The position numbers and the translations under genes were made by a program. Shown here piece by piece: positions 2,870 through 26,382 of a stretch of DNA of 64,000 nucleotides. The number at the start of each line of letters is the position of its first letter. Positions within the stretch are counted from its first letter, which is position 1. The notes under the pieces were generated by a model, which saw only the letters and a list, made by a program, of their open reading frames with translations, searched no databases and had not been told where the DNA came from. This DNA comes from Candidatus Nanosyncoccus sp. (GTDB lineage: Bacteria; Patescibacteriota; Saccharimonadia; Saccharimonadales; Saccharimonadaceae), in assembly GCA_045650525.1 (NCBI GenBank), contig JAZRRH010000013.1:43881-107880 (forward strand). The letters are read 5' to 3'.

Positions 2870-4753
2870 ATGACTTTAGATAAAAATAAAATTCGAAATG
2901 TGGCTATTATTGCGCATGTTGACCATGGTAAGACAACTTTGGTTGATGGGCTTTTGAAACAGTCGCATACTTTTCGCGACAATCAAGCAGAAATGTCGCA
3001 AACTTTGATCATGGATTCAATGGACCAGGAGCACGAACGCGGAATTACGATTACCGCCAAGCAAACCTGTGTTTATTACGATGGGTATAAAATTAATATT
3101 ATCGACACACCTGGGCACGCAGATTTTTCCGGTGAGGTAGAACGTACCCTAAATATGGCGGATGGCGTACTTCTTATCGTTGATGCGCAGGAAGGCCCGA
3201 TGCCTCAGACCAAATTCGTCCTGTCTAAGGCTCTAGATTTAGGCCTAAAGCCAGTGGTAGTAATTAACAAAATTGACAAACCTGCAGCGAGGATTCCGGA
3301 AGTTTTGTCAGAAATCGAATCGCTATTCTTGGAACTTGCAACAGATGAATCGCAGCTGTTTTATCCAGTTTACTATGCGATCGCTCGTGAAGGTAAAGCC
3401 GGCAAGACCACTGAACTCGATGACGATCTGCATGTGATTTTTGAGTCAATCATTAATGATATCCCAGCTCCGTCAGTGGATTCCGATTCCGATTCGGCAC
3501 AACTGCTCGTAGCTGCGCTAACCAGTGATAACTATCTCGGTAAATATTGTATCGGTAAAATTTTCCGTGGCAAGCTAAAAAAAGGACAGAGTGTTAGCAT
3601 TTTACATAAAACAACAAATTCATCATCCGAGGCAGTAAGACTTGGCCTAGCGGCCCGGAGCGCTGCCGAGGAGGATGGATTTGTTGTTTTGCGTGGAAAA
3701 ATTGAAAAACTGTTCATTTATAAGGGGCTTGGCAAGGAAGAGGTTTCCGAAGCAATTGCCGGGGATATTGTAGCCGTAACTGGTGTTTCGGAGGCGAACA
3801 TCGGTGACACTATCGCTACAGGTGACAAGCCTGAGGCTTTGCCAACAATTGAGCTTGAAGCTCCTACTCTTTCTATCTATATTGGCCCAAATACTTCACC
3901 ACTTAAGGGGCGTGAAGGCGAATTTACGACTTCACGACAAATCGCCGAAAGGCTCGAAAAAGAACTCGAGACCAACATTGCTCTTAAAATCCAGCCAGAT
4001 GGACTTGGCTACAAAGTGTCTGGCCGCGGTGAGCTGCATCTCTCAGTTTTGATTGAAACAATGCGACGCGAAGGCTACGAACTAGAAGCTGGTCGCCCAG
4101 AAGTGGTTTATCGTGACAACAATGGCGTGCAAGAAGAGCCAATTGAGTCACTTACCATCGAGGTTGATCCAGAATATGTCGGCGCTGTTTCGCAGGAACT
4201 AGGTATCCGTAAGGCCGAGCTAAAGACCCAGGAACTAACCTCTTCGGGCTCAACGAGGTTTGTCTATGAAATCTCTACCGCTGCCTTGATCGGTCTTAGG
4301 AATAATCTACTTACTGCTACCAAGGGTACAGTCATTATGTCTTCAATCCCATCGGGCTACCGACCGGTAGAAGGGAAATACCGTCCTGAGCGAAATGGCG
4401 CTCTTATATCCTTTGAAACTGGCGTCTCCACAGCCTATGCCCTCGATGCAGCCCAAGCCAGAGGAACTTTGTACATTCCACCTCAGGTAGATGTATATCA
4501 AGGTATGATCGTGGGGCTTTCAAACAAAAAAGATGATCTTGATATCAATGTTTGCCGCGAAAAACAGCTTACCAACATGCGTACGCATGCCTCTGATGGT
4601 GCAATTCAGCTCACTCCTTATACTCAGTTGTCTCTAGAGCAATGTCTAGACTTTCTCTTAGACGACGAGCTCTTAGAGGTCACACCAAAATCTTTGCGCC
4701 TACGTAAACGTCAACTCGACCCTATCAAACGAAAACGCGAAAACCGGGCATAA
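2870..4753 (+). CDS. typA: Translational GTPase TypA/BipA, carrying an in-frame hairpin insertion
   Basis: [31 protein letters not shown] and [11 protein letters not shown]. Confidence 0.97.
3608..3690 (+). repeat. In-frame palindromic insertion in typA
   Basis: AAAACAACAAATTCATC (3608-3624) pairs with GATGGATTTGTTGTTTT (3674-3690), one G-U; encodes [28 protein letters not shown]. Confidence 0.75.
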
Positions 4754-18228: not shown

Positions 18229-19713
18229 ATGAAAATAATTGGGCTAGATGTTGGCGAGAAACGAATTGGGGTGTCGAGAGCAGATTCGGACACCCGGATT
18301 GCTGTACCGGTCGGCTTTATTGAGGTAGATGGCAGCGGGTCGGAATGGCAGGAAATCGCTAGAATCGCAAGATTGAACAATACAAACTTGTTTATTCTTG
18401 GCATGCCGCGTAGCAATGAAGGGAATGAGACCGCTCAGTCGCTTTATGTTCGTAATTTCGCCAAAACATTAACAGAGAAACTACCCGGGGCGCGTGTAAA
18501 GTTTCAGGATGAATCACTCACCTCTGTTATAGCCGAGGAACGCCTCAAATCTCGCGAAAAAAACTATGTAAAAGGCGATATCGATGCAGAGGCAGCTACA
18601 ATTATTTTGCAGGATTTTCTCGAGGGGCTTAGCGCCGCCTCTAATATGGCCAGCGCGAGTAGCCCCACCTCTGATGACGCTGATGAGGATACACAGCAGT
18701 CTGGCATAAAATCCGCCATAAAAGGTGCCGGTATGGCCGTAAGCGGTGTCGCAAAAAAAGAGGCCGATAGAGCCAAGTTGAACTCGGCGAAGGTTAAACA
18801 TAAGGTAAAAACCTCCACAAAGCTAATATCTGGAGGTGTAGCGCTAGTTATTTTAATAATTGGGGCTATCGGCGGTTTTTTTCTAATTAACCACATCAAG
18901 GAAGAAAATGCGAAAAAACGCGCCGAGGAGTATGCTAGACAAGAGGCCGAAATGAAAGCGGCGACTTTTGATTTTACGATTCGCCCAGGGGAAACCATCT
19001 ACGATATCAGAGATAATTTGACAAAGGTTGAGCGCGGCAAGCCCGTCGGTGCCGACGAGGAACTTCCTCATTTCACTCGCCAAGAGATCGATGCGGCACT
19101 TGCAAAGAATTATAACTATACTTTTTTGCAGGGGCGACCAGAAGGGGCTACCCTTGAGGGTTACCTTTTTCCGGAGACTTTGAATTTTTATGGTGAAAGC
19201 ACAGTAGAAGAGGTAATAGACGCGTTTCTTAAGGAGACTGAGAGGGTAATTCAAGAAAATGATCTTATAAACAAATACAGCGCACAGGGATTGTCTCTAT
19301 TTGAAGGGATTACTTTGGCATCGGTGGTACAAAAAGAAGCTTCTTCGCCAGAGCAGCCAACCGTGGCTCAGGTGTTTTTATCGAGGCTCTCCTCGGGAAT
19401 GCTCCTCGGGAGCGATGTAACAGTAACTTATGCTCTTGACACAATTGACCCCGATCGAGAGATTTACAAAGATAATCAGAATGCTTTAAAGATAGACTCT
19501 TGTTACAACACAAGGACCCACAGAGGCCTCCCCTGTGGCCCTATCTCCAATCCGGGGCTTTCGGCGCTTCTTGCTGTAGCTAATCCATCAGATACAGCTT
19601 ATCTTTACTTCTTGACAGGAGACGATGGTATGATGTATTATGGTTATACAGAGTCTGAGCATATCCAGAACATCTACAACCATTGCCAAGAACTCTGTAA
19701 TGTATCATTATGA
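18229..19713 (+). CDS. Fusion of RuvX/YqgF (N-terminal) and endolytic transglycosylase MltG (C-terminal)
   Basis: IIGLDVGEKRIGV...DESLTS...DAEAATIILQ, then linker, TM and LEGYLFPETL...LASVVQKEA...YNT...GPISNPG...YLYF in one uninterrupted frame. Confidence 0.88.
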   Translation: MKIIGLDVGEKRIGVSRADSDTRIAVPVGFIEVDGSGSEWQEIARIARLNNTNLFILGMPRSNEGNETAQSLYVRNFAKTLTEKLPGARVKFQDESLTSVIAEERLKSREKNYVKGDIDAEAATIILQDFLEGLSAASNMASASSPTSDDADEDTQQSGIKSAIKGAGMAVSGVAKKEADRAKLNSAKVKHKVKTSTKLISGGVALVILIIGAIGGFFLINHIKEENAKKRAEEYARQEAEMKAATFDFTIRPGETIYDIRDNLTKVERGKPVGADEELPHFTRQEIDAALAKNYNYTFLQGRPEGATLEGYLFPETLNFYGESTVEEVIDAFLKETERVIQENDLINKYSAQGLSLFEGITLASVVQKEASSPEQPTVAQVFLSRLSSGMLLGSDVTVTYALDTIDPDREIYKDNQNALKIDSCYNTRTHRGLPCGPISNPGLSALLAVANPSDTAYLYFLTGDDGMMYYGYTESEHIQNIYNHCQELCNVSL

Positions 19714-20804
19714 CAAGACGCAAGAAGAAATTTGATTTTAGGAAAATTCAGAAGGCTTTGCCTTATTTGTTAACTGGTATCGTGACGCTAGCGGTTGTTT
19801 CTGTCGGCTCCATAGATAAACAAAATAGTGACGTCAACCTCAGTCTTGATTCTTTTGCAGCTAGCGACTATAACGTCTCTGTTGACCAGCTATCAGAGCT
19901 CTATGTTATTGCAGATCTATCTGATGCACTCAGCCTAGCTAGTGCCTCTGATGCCGCTTCCAACTACGTTATTACAAATACTATGTATAATGCTGGTATT
20001 TCGCTGGCTGGTAAGATAGAAAAACCAAGCCTTACCAATATTTCTGCTTCGCGTGGCGTAGTTGAGCATACAGTAGCCGAAGGTGAGACTATTGATACGC
20101 TCGCCTCAAAATACAACGTCTCTGCGGATCAGATACGTTGGTCTAACGGGCTCAAAACCACAGAGGTAGGAGTAGGTACAGTGCTTTATATCCCAAGTAG
20201 GCCTGGAATTGTTTATACCGTTAAATCTGGCGATACGATCGACTCTATCGTAGAAAAATATGGTTCGAATTCAGAAGAAATCATCGCTCTCAATGATTTG
20301 GAATTATCTGGTATTACTGAAGGGGCGAGAATCTTAATTAAAGATGGTACTCTGCCAGAAAAAGAACGCCCAGAATATGTGGCCCCTGTTGTACAGAGGA
20401 GGACTTCATCAAATTCATCAAGTTCGTCATATACCTATACCTATCTCGGTGACACCTCTGAGCGACAAAATATCCAAGTGGTAGGATACTATCGCATCGG
20501 ACACGGTCAATGTGTGGACTGGGCATCCTATATGAGGCCAGACCTCGGCGGATTGATGCTTGGCAACGCCAACGCTTGGGCGAGGAATGCCGCTGCTAGA
20601 GGATATTCTGTAAATCGTAGCCCTTCGGCTGGTGCGATTTTCCAGACTTCATCTGGTTGGTATGGTCACGTCGGTTATGTTGAAGCAGTCAACGGAGATG
20701 GCTCTATTACTGTAACAGAGATGAACTATAGCTATGTTCCTTATCGCGTGATTCGCGCAATTATTCCGGCGGATAAGGTGGGGAATTTTAACTATATCCA
20801 TTAA
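19710..20804 (+). CDS. LysM x2 plus CHAP domain peptidoglycan hydrolase
   Basis: HTVAEGETID and YTVKSGDTID LysM repeats; GQCVDW...GNANAW...GHVGYVE...EMNY CHAP motifs. Confidence 0.92.
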   Translation: MTRRKKKFDFRKIQKALPYLLTGIVTLAVVSVGSIDKQNSDVNLSLDSFAASDYNVSVDQLSELYVIADLSDALSLASASDAASNYVITNTMYNAGISLAGKIEKPSLTNISASRGVVEHTVAEGETIDTLASKYNVSADQIRWSNGLKTTEVGVGTVLYIPSRPGIVYTVKSGDTIDSIVEKYGSNSEEIIALNDLELSGITEGARILIKDGTLPEKERPEYVAPVVQRRTSSNSSSSSYTYTYLGDTSERQNIQVVGYYRIGHGQCVDWASYMRPDLGGLMLGNANAWARNAAARGYSVNRSPSAGAIFQTSSGWYGHVGYVEAVNGDGSITVTEMNYSYVPYRVIRAIIPADKVGNFNYIH

Positions 20805-20818
20805 ATATTGATGAAATA

Positions 20819-21002
20819 AAATCTCTTAACGCTATTTTTCGTTCGCGCTTCGCTTCGCTCCAGGAAAATCTTTATAAATTTTTTAACGGAAATTACTCGT
20901 GACTCACGTCTGCCTACGCGGTTCGCACGAGCTAATTTCCTAAAATTTATAAAGATTTTCTTGGGCTTGCTCAATGCTCACAAAAACAGAGTTAAGAGAT
21001 TT
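20819..21002. repeat. Intergenic nested palindrome (184 bp), homologous to the obgE/trmD insertions
   Basis: Nested IRs AAATCTCTTAAC/GTTAAGAGATTT, GAAAATCTTTATAAATTTT/AAAATTTATAAAGATTTTC, GGAAATTA/TAATTTCC and CTCGTG/CACGAG; the arms match the trmD element arms. Confidence 0.85.
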
Positions 21003-21006
21003 CATC

Positions 21007-22572
<1,566 letters not shown>

Positions 22573-22588
22573 TTATAAAATAAAATGC

Positions 22589-22617
22589 TTGACAACTAAT
22601 TGGTTATGCTTTATGCT
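22589..22617 (+). promoter_or_regulatory. Sigma70-type promoter with no ORF directly downstream
   Basis: TTGACA-17 nt-TATGCT. Confidence 0.7.
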
Positions 22618-22623
22618 TGTATT

Positions 22624-22768
22624 AAGCTGATACGCTTCACAGGGGTTCCACTGACTTTAGTGGAGTGTGGAGACTCATTAAAAACAAAAACAGCGGATTA
22701 AAACAAACCAATGTGCCCCAGGGTGGGCGCGTAGCAGCGGGGAAAGCGGCCGAAAGGTCGCTTTTTTT
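22624..22768 (+). ncRNA. Candidate orphan small RNA (about 145 nt)
   Basis: Own promoter; 5'/3' pairing GCTGATACGC/GCGTAGCAGC; internal hairpins; terminator AGCGGCC-GAAA-GGTCGCT plus T7. Confidence 0.55.
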
Positions 22769-22804
22769 GCGGCCGCATGGTATAATTCTCGGTAAAGGAG
22801 GCTC

Positions 22805-23002
22805 ATGGACCAAGAAAAAATAATCGATCAGTTAGAGGATGCGGTACTAGACAGGCTACCGGCTGACGCTGTAAAAAAACTAGCAGATTTAACCGACTTA
22901 GAAGGTGATCGCACGAAAGAGGCTCAGGCAATATTAGACGAGCATGGCGTCGACGTCGAGGCTGTCGCCAAGGATTATTTCAAGGAGGAAAACAATGACT
23001 AA
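22805..23002 (+). CDS. Small acidic hypothetical protein
   Basis: 65 aa, AAGGAG SD, overlaps the next start. Confidence 0.7.
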   Translation: MDQEKIIDQLEDAVLDRLPADAVKKLADLTDLEGDRTKEAQAILDEHGVDVEAVAKDYFKEENND

Positions 23003-23525
23003 CCCCAATAGATCAGGATTTACAAGCCACGAAGGTGATGGGCCAATCAAACATATCGGCATCAATAATAGCAATATCAACCACGATCAAGAGCTTCTTG
23101 ACCTGGAGGCTATCGAAAAGGATATAAAGGACCACAGAGAGCGAAACCAAGAGCTCGGCAAGATGAGCAATGAAGTTATTGCAAACAAAAACAAAGCCAA
23201 GCGTGGACCACTGAAGACAATTGTCAAAGGCGTAGCGGCCACTCTTATCACTATTGGGGTCATTGCTGGTATTGGAAGCCTCGAGAAAAACTCGCTCGAA
23301 GAACAGAAAAAGGCCGAAGAAGAAATGCATAATAAGAATCTTGCGGATTCGCCTATGCATTTTAATATTGGGGCTGATTCAAGCACGCTCATCGGGTCAA
23401 ATGGTAAAGTTTATACCGTAGAGAACAATGGCAGGAGCGAAGAGGAAGTCAAAAACGCACTAATCGGCATGATGGATGACGATATAAAGAATACAGAGGA
23501 GCGCGAGGCTCAATTTGGAGAATAA
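22995..23525 (+). CDS. Hypothetical single-pass membrane protein
   Basis: AGGAGG SD before ATG 22995; TM GVAATLITIGVIAGIG. Confidence 0.7.
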   Translation: MTNPNRSGFTSHEGDGPIKHIGINNSNINHDQELLDLEAIEKDIKDHRERNQELGKMSNEVIANKNKAKRGPLKTIVKGVAATLITIGVIAGIGSLEKNSLEEQKKAEEEMHNKNLADSPMHFNIGADSSTLIGSNGKVYTVENNGRSEEEVKNALIGMMDDDIKNTEEREAQFGE

Positions 23526-24338
23526 ATGATTAAGTTTACAATAATTACACTATTTCGCGAGGCGATTGAGCCATATCTCAAGACCTCAATGATGTGGAAA
23601 GCCACCGAGAAGGGTCTTGCAGAGTTTGATTTCGTAAACCTGAGGGATTTTGGCCTGGGGCCACACAAATCCGTGGATGATGCGCCATACGGGGGTGGAG
23701 ACGGTATGCTTCTCCGGTGCGAGCCGGTTTTTGCCGCGATTGAATCAGTAAAAGCAAAAGACCCCGAGGTAAAGGTTATTCTACCTACCCCTGTAGGGGA
23801 GATATGGAACCAAGGGATGGCGAGAGAGTTCGCTGGGGGTCAGCCGGTAGATTTTGCAAACATTGAGCAAACCCGAGAAAAATCTGAGGAGGCTAGTCGA
23901 GACGAGTACGAAACTGGAATTTCGGCGCAGTCCCGATTAGTCGACGAAGATTTTTCCCGGAGTGCAGCGAAGCGTGAGCAAAATCTACCTACTGACCACT
24001 CTACCACTCACTACATCATCTTGTGTCCACACTATGAGGGGTACGATGAGAGGATTTTGTCGATCGTGGACTATAAAATTTCGCTTGGCAAATACGTTTT
24101 GACTGGGGGCGAGCTTCCAGCATTGATCATTATCGATTCCGTAGTGCGGCTTATCCCAGGGGTACTTGGCGGTGAACAGTCTGCCGAAATTGAGTCTTTT
24201 TCGGATGGAGATAACCTGGAATATCCGCAATATACTCGTCCAGAGGATTTTAGAGGGATGAAGGTGCCAGAGGTTCTTCTCTCGGGCAACCATGGCGAAA
24301 TCGCTAAATGGCGCGAGGAGCATAGTGGGACTGTTTGA
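23526..24338 (+). CDS. trmD: tRNA (guanine-N1)-methyltransferase TrmD with an in-frame hairpin insertion
   Basis: TLF, VDDAPYGGGDGM, YEGYDERI, YVLTGGE, RLIPGVLG, YPQYTRP and VPEVLLSGNH. Confidence 0.96.
   Translation: MIKFTIITLFREAIEPYLKTSMMWKATEKGLAEFDFVNLRDFGLGPHKSVDDAPYGGGDGMLLRCEPVFAAIESVKAKDPEVKVILPTPVGEIWNQGMAREFAGGQPVDFANIEQTREKSEEASRDEYETGISAQSRLVDEDFSRSAAKREQNLPTDHSTTHYIILCPHYEGYDERILSIVDYKISLGKYVLTGGELPALIIIDSVVRLIPGVLGGEQSAEIESFSDGDNLEYPQYTRPEDFRGMKVPEVLLSGNHGEIAKWREEHSGTV
23838..23997 (+). repeat. In-frame palindromic insertion in trmD (family A)
   Basis: GGTCAG-CC-GGTAGATTTTGC...GCAAAATCTACC-TA-CTGACC; the 144-bp core 23846-23989 has a perfect 12-bp IR. Confidence 0.92.
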
Positions 24339-26382
24339 CCCGGTTGAATCATTGACTGGGGTCGGCCCAAAAACGGCAGAAGTTTTAAGAAAACATGGTA
24401 TCAGGACCGTAAAAGACTTTTTTTATAATTTGCCGCGTGATTACGAGAACTACGAGAGGCCGACCTCTATCTCGGAGATGCGCCCCGGCAAGGTGGTGAT
24501 TAGGGGCAAAATCGACAGTCTGTCTACCAGGAGAGCTCGAAAACGTAATTTATCTATCACCGAAGGTATAGTTCGAGATAAAACAGGGGCAGTAAAAGTT
24601 GTTTGGTTTAATCAAAGATACCGCGTAAAGCAATTTTCTCCGGATAAAGAATATTTCTTTACTGGGCTCTATGAGCTAAGAAATGGCCGTTATAGCCTAG
24701 TTTCACCCTCTGCGGCTGAGATAAGCGATATTGACCCATCAAGCGGCCTAGCGCCCGTTTATGTGGCTCACGGAAGCTTAAAGTCTAATGATTTTAAGCG
24801 TTTGATAAATAAATCACGTGATCAGTTTGCCTCTATCCCAGATCTTTTGCCATCTGTGGTGCAGGGAACAAGGGCTAAAGCACTCTATTTTGCACATTTC
24901 CCAAACTCTCTGAAATCTATAGAGGGAGCGCGAGATTATTTGGCCTACGAGGAGCTTTTTGAGTTAATTCTCGCGGCAAGGCTAAACCGCAGGGAAAATG
25001 AGAAACTAAAAGCCATGCCAGTGCCTTTCAATCAGGGTAAAATCCAGGAAATTGTTAACGGGCTTCCCTTCAAATTAACTAATGCGCAGAGGCGGGCTAC
25101 TTGGGAGATTTTCCAAAATATGGAGGCCGTTACACCGATGAATAGGCTTTTACAGGGTGATGTGGGCTCTGGCAAAACCATGGTGGCGACTCTCGCGGCA
25201 TACGAGGCGGTTCTCGCTGGTAGCCAAGTGGCGATTCTCGCCCCAACAGCAATCTTGGCCGCTCAGCATTATGCTAGTTTTTCATCGGTTTTGGAGGCTT
25301 ATGGCGTTAAAATTGCCCTCCTCACTGGGGCAACCAAGAAAAAATCTGAGCTAAAAAAACAAATCAAGGACGGCGAAGTCGATATCGTAATAGGAACACA
25401 TGCTCTGCTCACCGATGACACGGAATTCCATGAGCTTAGATTGGTAGTAATTGACGAGCAGCACAGATTTGGGGTAGAACAGAGACAAAAGCTGATGTTA
25501 AAATCGCCAGCCGGCCTGGCACCACACCTGTTATCTATGACAGCCACCCCTATTCCGCGCTCGTTGCAGTTAACTGTGTTTGGGGACCTCGATGTCTCTA
25601 TTTTGAATGAACTGCCAACCGGCAGGCAACCTGTCACGACTTTTATTTCGCCAGAGGTAGAAATACGAGAAAAACTATACCCACTGATGCGTCAAATTTT
25701 GAAATCCGAGCCGGACAAGAAAAAACACGGCGACCTAGCGCATGGACAGCAGATTTATTGGATTTGTAAGGCGATTGACAAAAATGGCGACGAGAATTCC
25801 GGTGTCACCTCTGTAAGAACTAGGACAAAACGCCTCCAGGAGGTATTCCCTGAATGTAAGGTAGAATTTTTGCATGGCAAGATGAAACCTGCAGAAAAAG
25901 ACGCCGTGATGGAGCAGTTTTCCTCTGGGGAGATTGACATTTTGGTTTCTACAACAGTGGTAGAGGTGGGCGTTGACGTACCAAATGCAAACTTGATGGT
26001 GATCGAAAATGCCGAGTCGTATGGTTTGGCACAACTTCACCAATTAAGGGGTCGCGTGGGGCGCGGAGCGTCTTCTGCGTATTGTTGCCTTTTAACCTCT
26101 GGGGACAGCTTCCCGTCTAGAAGACTTCGCGAGCTCGAGAAATCCAACGATGGTTTTTACCTTGCTGAGGTGGATTTGAAACTACGTGGTCCTGGCGAGA
26201 TTTACGGAGCCCTGCAGCATGGCGCGCTCGATCTTCGCATCGCCTCACTCTCTGATACCAAGCTAATTAGCCGCGCACAGGCCGATGTATTGAAATTCTT
26301 GAAAGATCCGGCGAATTTGGCGTGCCACAAGGAATTGATGGACGGCATCTCTAAATATCAACAGATTACGACGCTGAATTAA
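24325..26382 (+). CDS. recG: ATP-dependent DNA helicase RecG
   Basis: RLLQGDVGSGKT, DEQHRFG, MTATPIPR, QLHQLRGRVGRG and DLKLRGPGE; GTG start at 24325 with GAGGAG SD. Confidence 0.96.
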   Translation: MGLFDPVESLTGVGPKTAEVLRKHGIRTVKDFFYNLPRDYENYERPTSISEMRPGKVVIRGKIDSLSTRRARKRNLSITEGIVRDKTGAVKVVWFNQRYRVKQFSPDKEYFFTGLYELRNGRYSLVSPSAAEISDIDPSSGLAPVYVAHGSLKSNDFKRLINKSRDQFASIPDLLPSVVQGTRAKALYFAHFPNSLKSIEGARDYLAYEELFELILAARLNRRENEKLKAMPVPFNQGKIQEIVNGLPFKLTNAQRRATWEIFQNMEAVTPMNRLLQGDVGSGKTMVATLAAYEAVLAGSQVAILAPTAILAAQHYASFSSVLEAYGVKIALLTGATKKKSELKKQIKDGEVDIVIGTHALLTDDTEFHELRLVVIDEQHRFGVEQRQKLMLKSPAGLAPHLLSMTATPIPRSLQLTVFGDLDVSILNELPTGRQPVTTFISPEVEIREKLYPLMRQILKSEPDKKKHGDLAHGQQIYWICKAIDKNGDENSGVTSVRTRTKRLQEVFPECKVEFLHGKMKPAEKDAVMEQFSSGEIDILVSTTVVEVGVDVPNANLMVIENAESYGLAQLHQLRGRVGRGASSAYCCLLTSGDSFPSRRLRELEKSNDGFYLAEVDLKLRGPGEIYGALQHGALDLRIASLSDTKLISRAQADVLKFLKDPANLACHKELMDGISKYQQITTLN

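Follow-up and report, generated by a model that had tools for sequence, protein, structure and literature searches.

A non-coding palindromic repeat between converging LysM/CHAP and obg genes of a Nanosyncoccus-like Saccharibacterium and its probable RPE-like nature

Rickettsia palindromic elements (RPE) are repeats that lie between genes and also in frame within unrelated genes, which then translate them into a conserved peptide (Ogata et al., 2000, 2002; excerpted in PMC10969869). REP sequences, as described in an excerpt of PMC3733652, are 20–40 bp long and carry a GTAG or CGTC head. In-frame palindromic repeats inside essential genes are best known from Rickettsia. Bacterial MITEs, such as Correia elements, ERIC/IRU, and RUP, are small non-autonomous repeats with inverted ends which are present or absent between relatives. 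REP/BIME are extragenic palindromes of high copy number, associated with RAYT transposases, which often lie between converging genes, and roles in mRNA stabilization or termination have been proposed for them. Quasipalindromes are known to mutate by template switching, as established in E. coli and phage T4. This process predicts paired complementary changes in the two arms and growth of the palindrome by inverted copying of its flanks. No paper linking elements of the palindromic, MITE, or REP kind with Saccharibacteria or Patescibacteria came up in a full-text literature search.

We analyzed a 64-kb stretch of DNA (the window) in which a LysM/CHAP gene and obg converge, with a palindrome enclosed by their stop codons. 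The close relatives of TrmD, Obg, and MetK are Candidatus Saccharibacteria, several of them labeled Nanosyncoccus, mostly from ruminant gut metagenomes. Comparison with the empty sites of relatives set the length of the inserted palindrome at 197 nt (Table 1). The original prediction had placed it at 20819–21002, which was slightly too narrow. The element begins 5 nt after the CHAP stop codon, and its right end abuts the obg stop codon directly; the flanking bases are ATATT on the left and CTACC on the right. Its ends, GATGAAAT from 20810 and ATTTCATC to 21006, form a perfect 8-nt terminal inverted repeat. Further inward, the inverted-repeat pairs are nested (20801–20839 with 20982–21020, 20860–20882 with 20942–20964 at 96% complementarity, and 20882–20901 with 20926–20945) and end in an apical hairpin. 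The predicted RNA fold is a single rod of about 75 pairs with an energy of −72.7 kcal/mol. Dinucleotide shuffles of the element gave −34.5 ± 3.8 kcal/mol (z = −10), and none of 200 shuffles was equally stable. The hairpin is formed by either strand. The near-continuous rod of nested inverted repeats that had been read from the letters was thus confirmed, as was its location between convergent stops, about 270 nt from the beginning of the related element in obg.

Table 1. Features of the intergenic palindrome and the neighboring genes (window coordinates)
Feature	Position	Strand	Basis or remark
Whole inserted palindrome	20810–21006		Fold; empty sites in L018, L012, L013, L023, L024, L086
Left outermost stem, locus-specific	20810–20839		Partner of 20982–21006
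Left family-A arm GTTCGCGCTTCGCTTCGCTCCAGGAAAATCTT	20841–20872	+	Antisense match to trmD/obg elements; inside 41-bit profile match
Core block TTAACGGAAATT	20883–20894	+	Identical in window and L002; used as scan pattern
Apical motif CTCACG	20903–20908	+	Invariant in 7/7 aligned non-coding copies
Core block AATTTCCTAAAA	20934–20945	+	3' partner of 20883–20894; conserved in subfamily
Right family-A arm AGATTTTCTTGGGCTTGCTCAATGCTCACAAAA	20953–20985	+	Inside profile match
Right outermost stem	20982–21006		Abuts obg stop (CTA on + strand, 21007–21009)
LysM/CHAP gene, peptidoglycan hydrolase-like protein	19710–20804	+	Pfam LysM, CHAP
obg (GTPase), converging	21007–22551	−	Pfam GTP1_OBG, MMR_HSR1, DUF1967; alignment with orthologues
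Coding copy in obg, translated in frame	21253–21446	−	Related to the element
Coding copy in trmD, translated in frame	23838–23997	+	Site empty in close relatives

We compared the CHAP/obg spacer in 89 related loci holding the trmD region. The same convergent pair is found in L005, L012, L013, L015, L018, L023, L024, L028, and L086–L088, usually with spacers of −4 to 46 nt, and in some relatives the CHAP gene and obg overlap. The junction in L018 reads TAAATATTAATTTTACC, at the place where the window has the palindrome between its two flanks. Aligning the element flanks with this empty site revealed no target-site duplication. An orthologous 180-nt copy with the same interior is present in L002 (GCA_045530815), with 84% identity to the window copy over the shared body. 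An independent metagenome contig, L101, is nearly identical to the window, which rules out an assembly artefact. What deletion has left in L083 and L085 is the pair of outer stems plus 17 nt of the left arm; the homologue of the left outermost stem is retained in these remnants and missing from the L002 copy. The orthologous copy and the remnants indicate that the element predates the split of these lineages and decays in some of them. The comparison shows an insertion, and the ancestor of the window genome and a few close relatives would have received it in the few bases between the converging stops. The element would afterward have been kept in the window genome, diverged in L002, and been mostly deleted in L083.

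The obg gene contains two in-frame hairpin insertions. One of them and the element in trmD share 88% identity over 136 nt, share a reading frame, and encode one conserved peptide; we refer to them as family A. When the obg and trmD elements are read in antisense, both arms of the intergenic element align with them; the strand of the intergenic element equivalent to the coding sense is the − strand. We made a profile exclusively from coding copies, ten in number, of the window and seven related loci. It matches 20837–20986 on the − strand with 41.4 bits (E 1e-10 in 1.5 Mb; model positions 14–146). The best of 2000 dinucleotide shuffles reached 9.1 bits against the same profile, which indicates that the arm homology is real. 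Strong matches are those of the arms; over the interior, the alignment with the coding core is weak. The likeness of the arms to those of the trmD element, proposed earlier, holds in this comparison. The match to a coding-only profile also supports the view that the intergenic element is a free-standing, non-coding relative of family A, with the caveat on membership that the defining arms are about 33 nt each.

A recent local duplication, in which hopping or gene conversion copied the obg or trmD element and the middle was later replaced, is extremely unlikely. It would account for the fact that all three family-A copies of the window lie within 3.2 kb, and obg and trmD copies seem to exchange elsewhere, since the trmD copy of the window is closest to the obg copy of L083 (92%). 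However, the intergenic copy is 58–65% identical to every coding copy, and the two neighboring ones are no closer than the rest. Its best arm matches lie in other genomes, L001 and L021; for the right arm, identity with the L001 trmD element reaches 91% over 33 nt. L002 shares the intergenic copy, yet its obg and trmD genes are without family A. Moreover, the interior belongs to a subfamily found at other loci. As judged from the identity matrix, local duplication appears largely refuted. The even identity to all coding copies, the copy common to L002, and the remnant in L083 point to an old element rather than a recent copy of a neighbor, and the local hopping suggested in the original prediction is therefore not supported.

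The distribution of the coding copies was examined at the protein level. A profile search with the inserted peptide in 1.84 billion representative proteins returned one match, at a MiaA-like N-terminus (P0121), and a word-based search limited to the peptide region returned Obg proteins only. The coding family thus seems limited to a small number of sites, unless searches of this kind miss so short a peptide. P0121 is a 72-aa fragment with the family-A peptide ARAKSEEGSRDEYGTVIPAQSRLTDDDFALRA at the N-terminus of a MiaA-like P-loop protein, and it is apparently a third host gene of the coding subfamily.

The TrmD loop AREFA-HYIILCPHYEG (window 23835–24014) is highly variable in length among near-identical orthologues. 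Its variants are empty (217 aa), carry family A, or carry at least two further unrelated inserts (SGPRPAGP...AALRNAP and EFSSTSYAG...). From these alignments, the loop is a site that seems to be struck or remodeled repeatedly. In the obg linker, the codons for ELK(M/E/Q)V in the outer stem pair with a mirrored stretch before IPTIS (L013:7690–7880, L012:7745–7935, L001:9400–9590). The two sides of this stem covary between genomes (AAGATG/CATCTT, AAAGAG/CACTTT, and AAGCAG/CTGCTT), and the nucleotides and both peptide stretches alter in concert.

To find further copies with the same interior, a metagenome collection was scanned with a core pattern consisting of TTAACGGAAATT, 25–55 nt, and AATTTCCTAAAA. 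The scan returned 16 loci; since the members were retrieved by an exact pattern, the sample is biased to conserved cores. Besides L101, five independent loci have the same design (L090/L094, L092, L093, L096, and L105), and their copies score 123–143 bits with the subfamily profile. From the outside in, the layers are a locus-specific outer stem, family-A-like arms, a variable AT-rich stem, the core with a TTAAC bulge, a variable inner stem, and the CTCACG apex. The arms of the subfamily read TTCGCG.CTTCGC..CCAGGA and TCTTGGGC..GCTCAATGC. The apex is invariant although it was absent from the search pattern. All copies of the subfamily are intergenic; they occur in convergent, tandem, and divergent contexts and in both orientations. 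In total, 1.67 Mb was searched, made up of 1.36 Mb of trmD-centered loci from about 85 relatives, the window, and the loci retrieved by the core pattern. In the trmD-centered loci, the subfamily profile found the window and L002 copies only, so the subfamily is sparse there.

The most conserved part of the subfamily is the interior, whereas the AT-rich connecting stems and the outermost stems are variable. The interior had been described as unrelated to family A. This description does not fully hold, as the interior aligns, if weakly, with the coding core and is a conserved module of the non-coding subfamily. The related proposal of conserved ends with an exchangeable interior is right in that the design is modular. 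The same arms carry two interiors, and the intergenic copies L050 and L055 do the reverse, joining an apex of the coding type to different stems or arms. It is wrong in treating the interior as filler. The non-coding copy is useful in this respect because it is free of coding constraint and reveals the parts that are conserved for themselves, which are the arms, core, bulge, and apex.

Orthologous contexts for the other non-coding copies were sought in the related loci, and none was found there; the metK locus alone is comparable. In the spacer between a glycosyltransferase gene and metK, L093, which comes from a Saccharibacterium, has the element at 4345–4530 and no riboswitch. Three contigs of Saccharibacteria have a SAM riboswitch in this spacer upstream of metK (L106:2412–2505, L107:2411–2505, and L108:2412–2505; Rfam RF00162, 56–59 bits). 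The outer arms of the L093 copy carry the promoter-like sequence TATGATATAAT in both directions.

The hairpin is maintained through paired changes. Between the window and L002, the 55 predicted pairs contain 8 double compensatory changes, no single change, and no broken pair. Among the seven non-coding copies, two-sided changes occur in 25 of 54 pairs; shuffles gave 10.2 ± 2.2 (0 of 500 reached 25), and slid partners gave at most 10. When coding and non-coding copies are taken together, two-sided changes are found in 42 of 47 pairs. Additional signs are seen at the DNA level. Folding energy favors neither strand consistently. The trmD copies of the window and L001 have a 9-nt difference in both arms. 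The right outer arm of the L002 copy is an inverted copy (24/27) of the last CHAP codons and stop on its left. In obg, the left extension of the element, which encodes EENKKES, is an inverted copy (34/37) of the host codons for DIPTISL on the right, and these codons are conserved even in orthologues without the element. The both-arm differences in trmD and the inverted flank copies in L002 and obg suggest that one arm was copied from the other at the level of DNA.

These patterns are the ones that quasipalindrome template switching predicts. That process differs from the other systems in that it is a mutational process rather than an element family, and it is not known from Saccharibacteria. 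We suppose that the hairpin persists as both its arms change together at the DNA level, and that intramolecular template switching or arm-to-arm conversion at the hairpin is the likely cause, although selection on an RNA or DNA structure could also play a part. The same process would leave palindromes of this kind in the clade with inverted copies of their host flanks. The paired changes and the inverted flank copies thus offer a concrete and testable mechanism for the persistence and growth of palindromes.

Some features of the core are not those expected from unconstrained copying. Within TTAACGGAAATT, TTAAC forms an asymmetric bulge and GGAAATT pairs with 20934–20940; the bulge is conserved. 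Two G-T positions are also conserved, in 5–6 of the 7 copies. Unconstrained arm-to-arm correction should erase conserved blocks, the bulge, and G-T positions, which suggests that something, either a protein or an RNA function, reads them.

One such function would be that of a structured RNA. The element could be a 3'-UTR hairpin that ends or stabilizes the converging transcripts, as a bidirectional terminator or exonuclease barrier, or it could be a small RNA gene outside Rfam. We consider this explanation unlikely. Conserved blocks between covarying stems, the conserved bulge and apex, and the conservation of the two G-U positions on the + orientation are what a functional RNA would have. The element also lies exactly between two stop codons, and on the − strand its outer stem runs into ATTTTATTT. 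However, the folding energies of both strands of 18 copies showed no consistent strand preference, and neither the element nor its immediate surroundings yielded a promoter. A search against Rfam (E ≤ 1) over 20300–24400 gave no match except an irrelevant snoRNA match inside obg, and the L093 element was likewise without a match. A consensus scan found no canonical terminator in the element, which has long, AT-rich stems. In close relatives the two genes converge without a spacer, and in some they overlap; paralogues include copies flanked by divergent genes and, in the opposite orientation, copies flanked by tandem genes.

The distribution bears on termination in particular. The spacer-free relatives, together with copies in 5' regions, make a dedicated terminator role unlikely for the family, and no terminator is needed at the paralogues between divergent genes. 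An incidental effect is plausible, in which both converging transcripts would end in a long 3'-terminal duplex.

Several described classes were compared with the element and rejected. An intrinsic (Rho-independent) terminator needs a short G+C-rich stem-loop with a U tract directly behind it, at the 3' end of a transcription unit, and the consensus scan found none in the element. 6S RNA, SRP RNA, and other rod-shaped RNAs were rejected on the lack of an Rfam match and of a large central bubble. The outer stem contains TTAAC/GTTAA as an integron attC site might, but the other copies are without conserved AAC/GTT boxes. A coding role of the intergenic copy was rejected as well. The strand equivalent to the coding sense has stops in every frame. 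On the + strand, the frame in register with CHAP is open for 69 codons through the whole palindrome (20817–21029); it is separated from CHAP by the stop of that gene and, five codons further on, by another stop. It lacks a start codon, and stops interrupt it in 2 of 7 paralogues.

The conserved core could instead be read as DNA. The element would then be a recombination or inversion site, or a target of a cruciform-binding protein, perhaps tied to flipping of obg. The orientation of obg relative to CHAP and trmD changes among close relatives: the gene lies on the + strand in L001 (8452–9831), L089 (7985–9349), and more distant relatives, and on the − strand in the window, L002, and L083–L088. 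One boundary of this segment coincides exactly with the element. With its conserved bulge and mismatches, the element recalls the structural determinants known from hairpin recombination sites, and it is symmetric between strands. A site of this kind is nevertheless very unlikely, as the junction is free of the element in most genomes whose obg is inverted, no matching partner element was found at the other junction (22552–22943), and no recombinase gene was seen beside any copy.

The explanation that we favor is that the element is probably an RPE-like, formerly mobile, non-coding copy of a palindromic repeat family of ruminant-gut, Nanosyncoccus-like Saccharibacteria. The repeat would spread, or would have spread, by duplication; it has no gene of its own and stands in no constant relation to its neighbor genes, and it probably serves no dedicated function. 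Against mobility stand the lack of a target-site duplication and the fact that no transposase or other mobilizing enzyme was identified. The sparse subfamily, the conserved blocks and bulge, and the + frame that is open in 5 of 7 copies also speak against this explanation.

RPE is the closest of the described systems. RPE are palindromic repeats of about 100–200 bp in small, reduced genomes, and here the body of the element is about 150 nt (197 nt with the outer stems) in a genome that is also small and reduced. Intergenic copies and in-frame copies in housekeeping genes belong to one family in both systems. Both lack genes of their own, and for neither is a mobilizing enzyme known. In contrast, the host belongs to Saccharibacteria/CPR, and the coding sites are few (obg, trmD, and one MiaA-like N-terminus) where Rickettsia has dozens. 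Here the non-coding copies make up a separate subfamily, distinguished by a conserved interior unlike that of the coding copies, and the palindromes also carry inverted copies of host flanks. By analogy, the element may be said to work like RPE. Membership in RPE is not claimed because the host phylum differs and the likeness rests on design and size rather than on sequence.

The comparison with MITEs and REP is less close, and the MITE/REP-type label given in the original prediction does not fit. The element is like bacterial MITEs in its small size, its inverted ends, its presence or absence between relatives, its intergenic and transcribed positions, and its capacity for a long RNA or DNA hairpin. 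Its terminal inverted repeat also agrees with them. However, the absence of a target-site duplication around it argues against the MITE label, and no parent insertion sequence is known. In addition, the element is one palindrome throughout rather than two short terminal repeats around unique DNA, and its outermost stems vary by locus. With REP/BIME, it shares the extragenic position between converging genes. It is 150–197 bp in length, lacks the GTAG or CGTC head, and has one orthologous locus in 1.36 Mb, so that the REP label fails on size and head motif.

The presence of a related pattern in a CPR bacterium of ultra-small size, where coding and non-coding subfamilies have arms in common, suggests that such repeats are a recurrent feature of reduced genomes. 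On the practical side, the length variation in obg, trmD, and the spacers can introduce errors into gene calling, sequence alignment, and the assembly of MAGs from Saccharibacteria.

We also put forward a wider reading, which is tentative and doubtful as a whole. Saccharibacteria may harbor self-maintaining and self-extending palindromes, whose core would be read by a structure-specific factor, whose arms would evolve in concert, and which would grow outward through inverted copies of host flanks. Stop codons, promoters, and conserved codons from essential genes would be among the flanks copied in this way. Such palindromes might have remodeled protein linkers and regulatory regions, with one copy at the position of the metK SAM riboswitch.

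The core pattern had no match in viral contigs. Among the metagenome contigs, it also retrieved a second group of hairpins with the same core (L091, L095, L097, L098, L100, L102, L104, and L099). This group also has TTTTCG..ACTCAC..GGTTC, which lies outside the search pattern, and its arms differ (CCCCAGCTTCACCGC.../...GGCGGTTCAGATGGGG). The hairpins adjoin ilvC/ilvY-like genes, and the Haemophilus-type uptake sequence AAGTGCGGT is nearby; the contigs are probably from Pasteurellaceae. The shared core may reflect chance, convergence, or exchange between phyla. If the palindromes of Saccharibacteria are indeed self-extending, the core in the Pasteurellaceae-like contigs would suggest that naturally competent bacteria sharing a mammalian microbiota have exchanged this motif.
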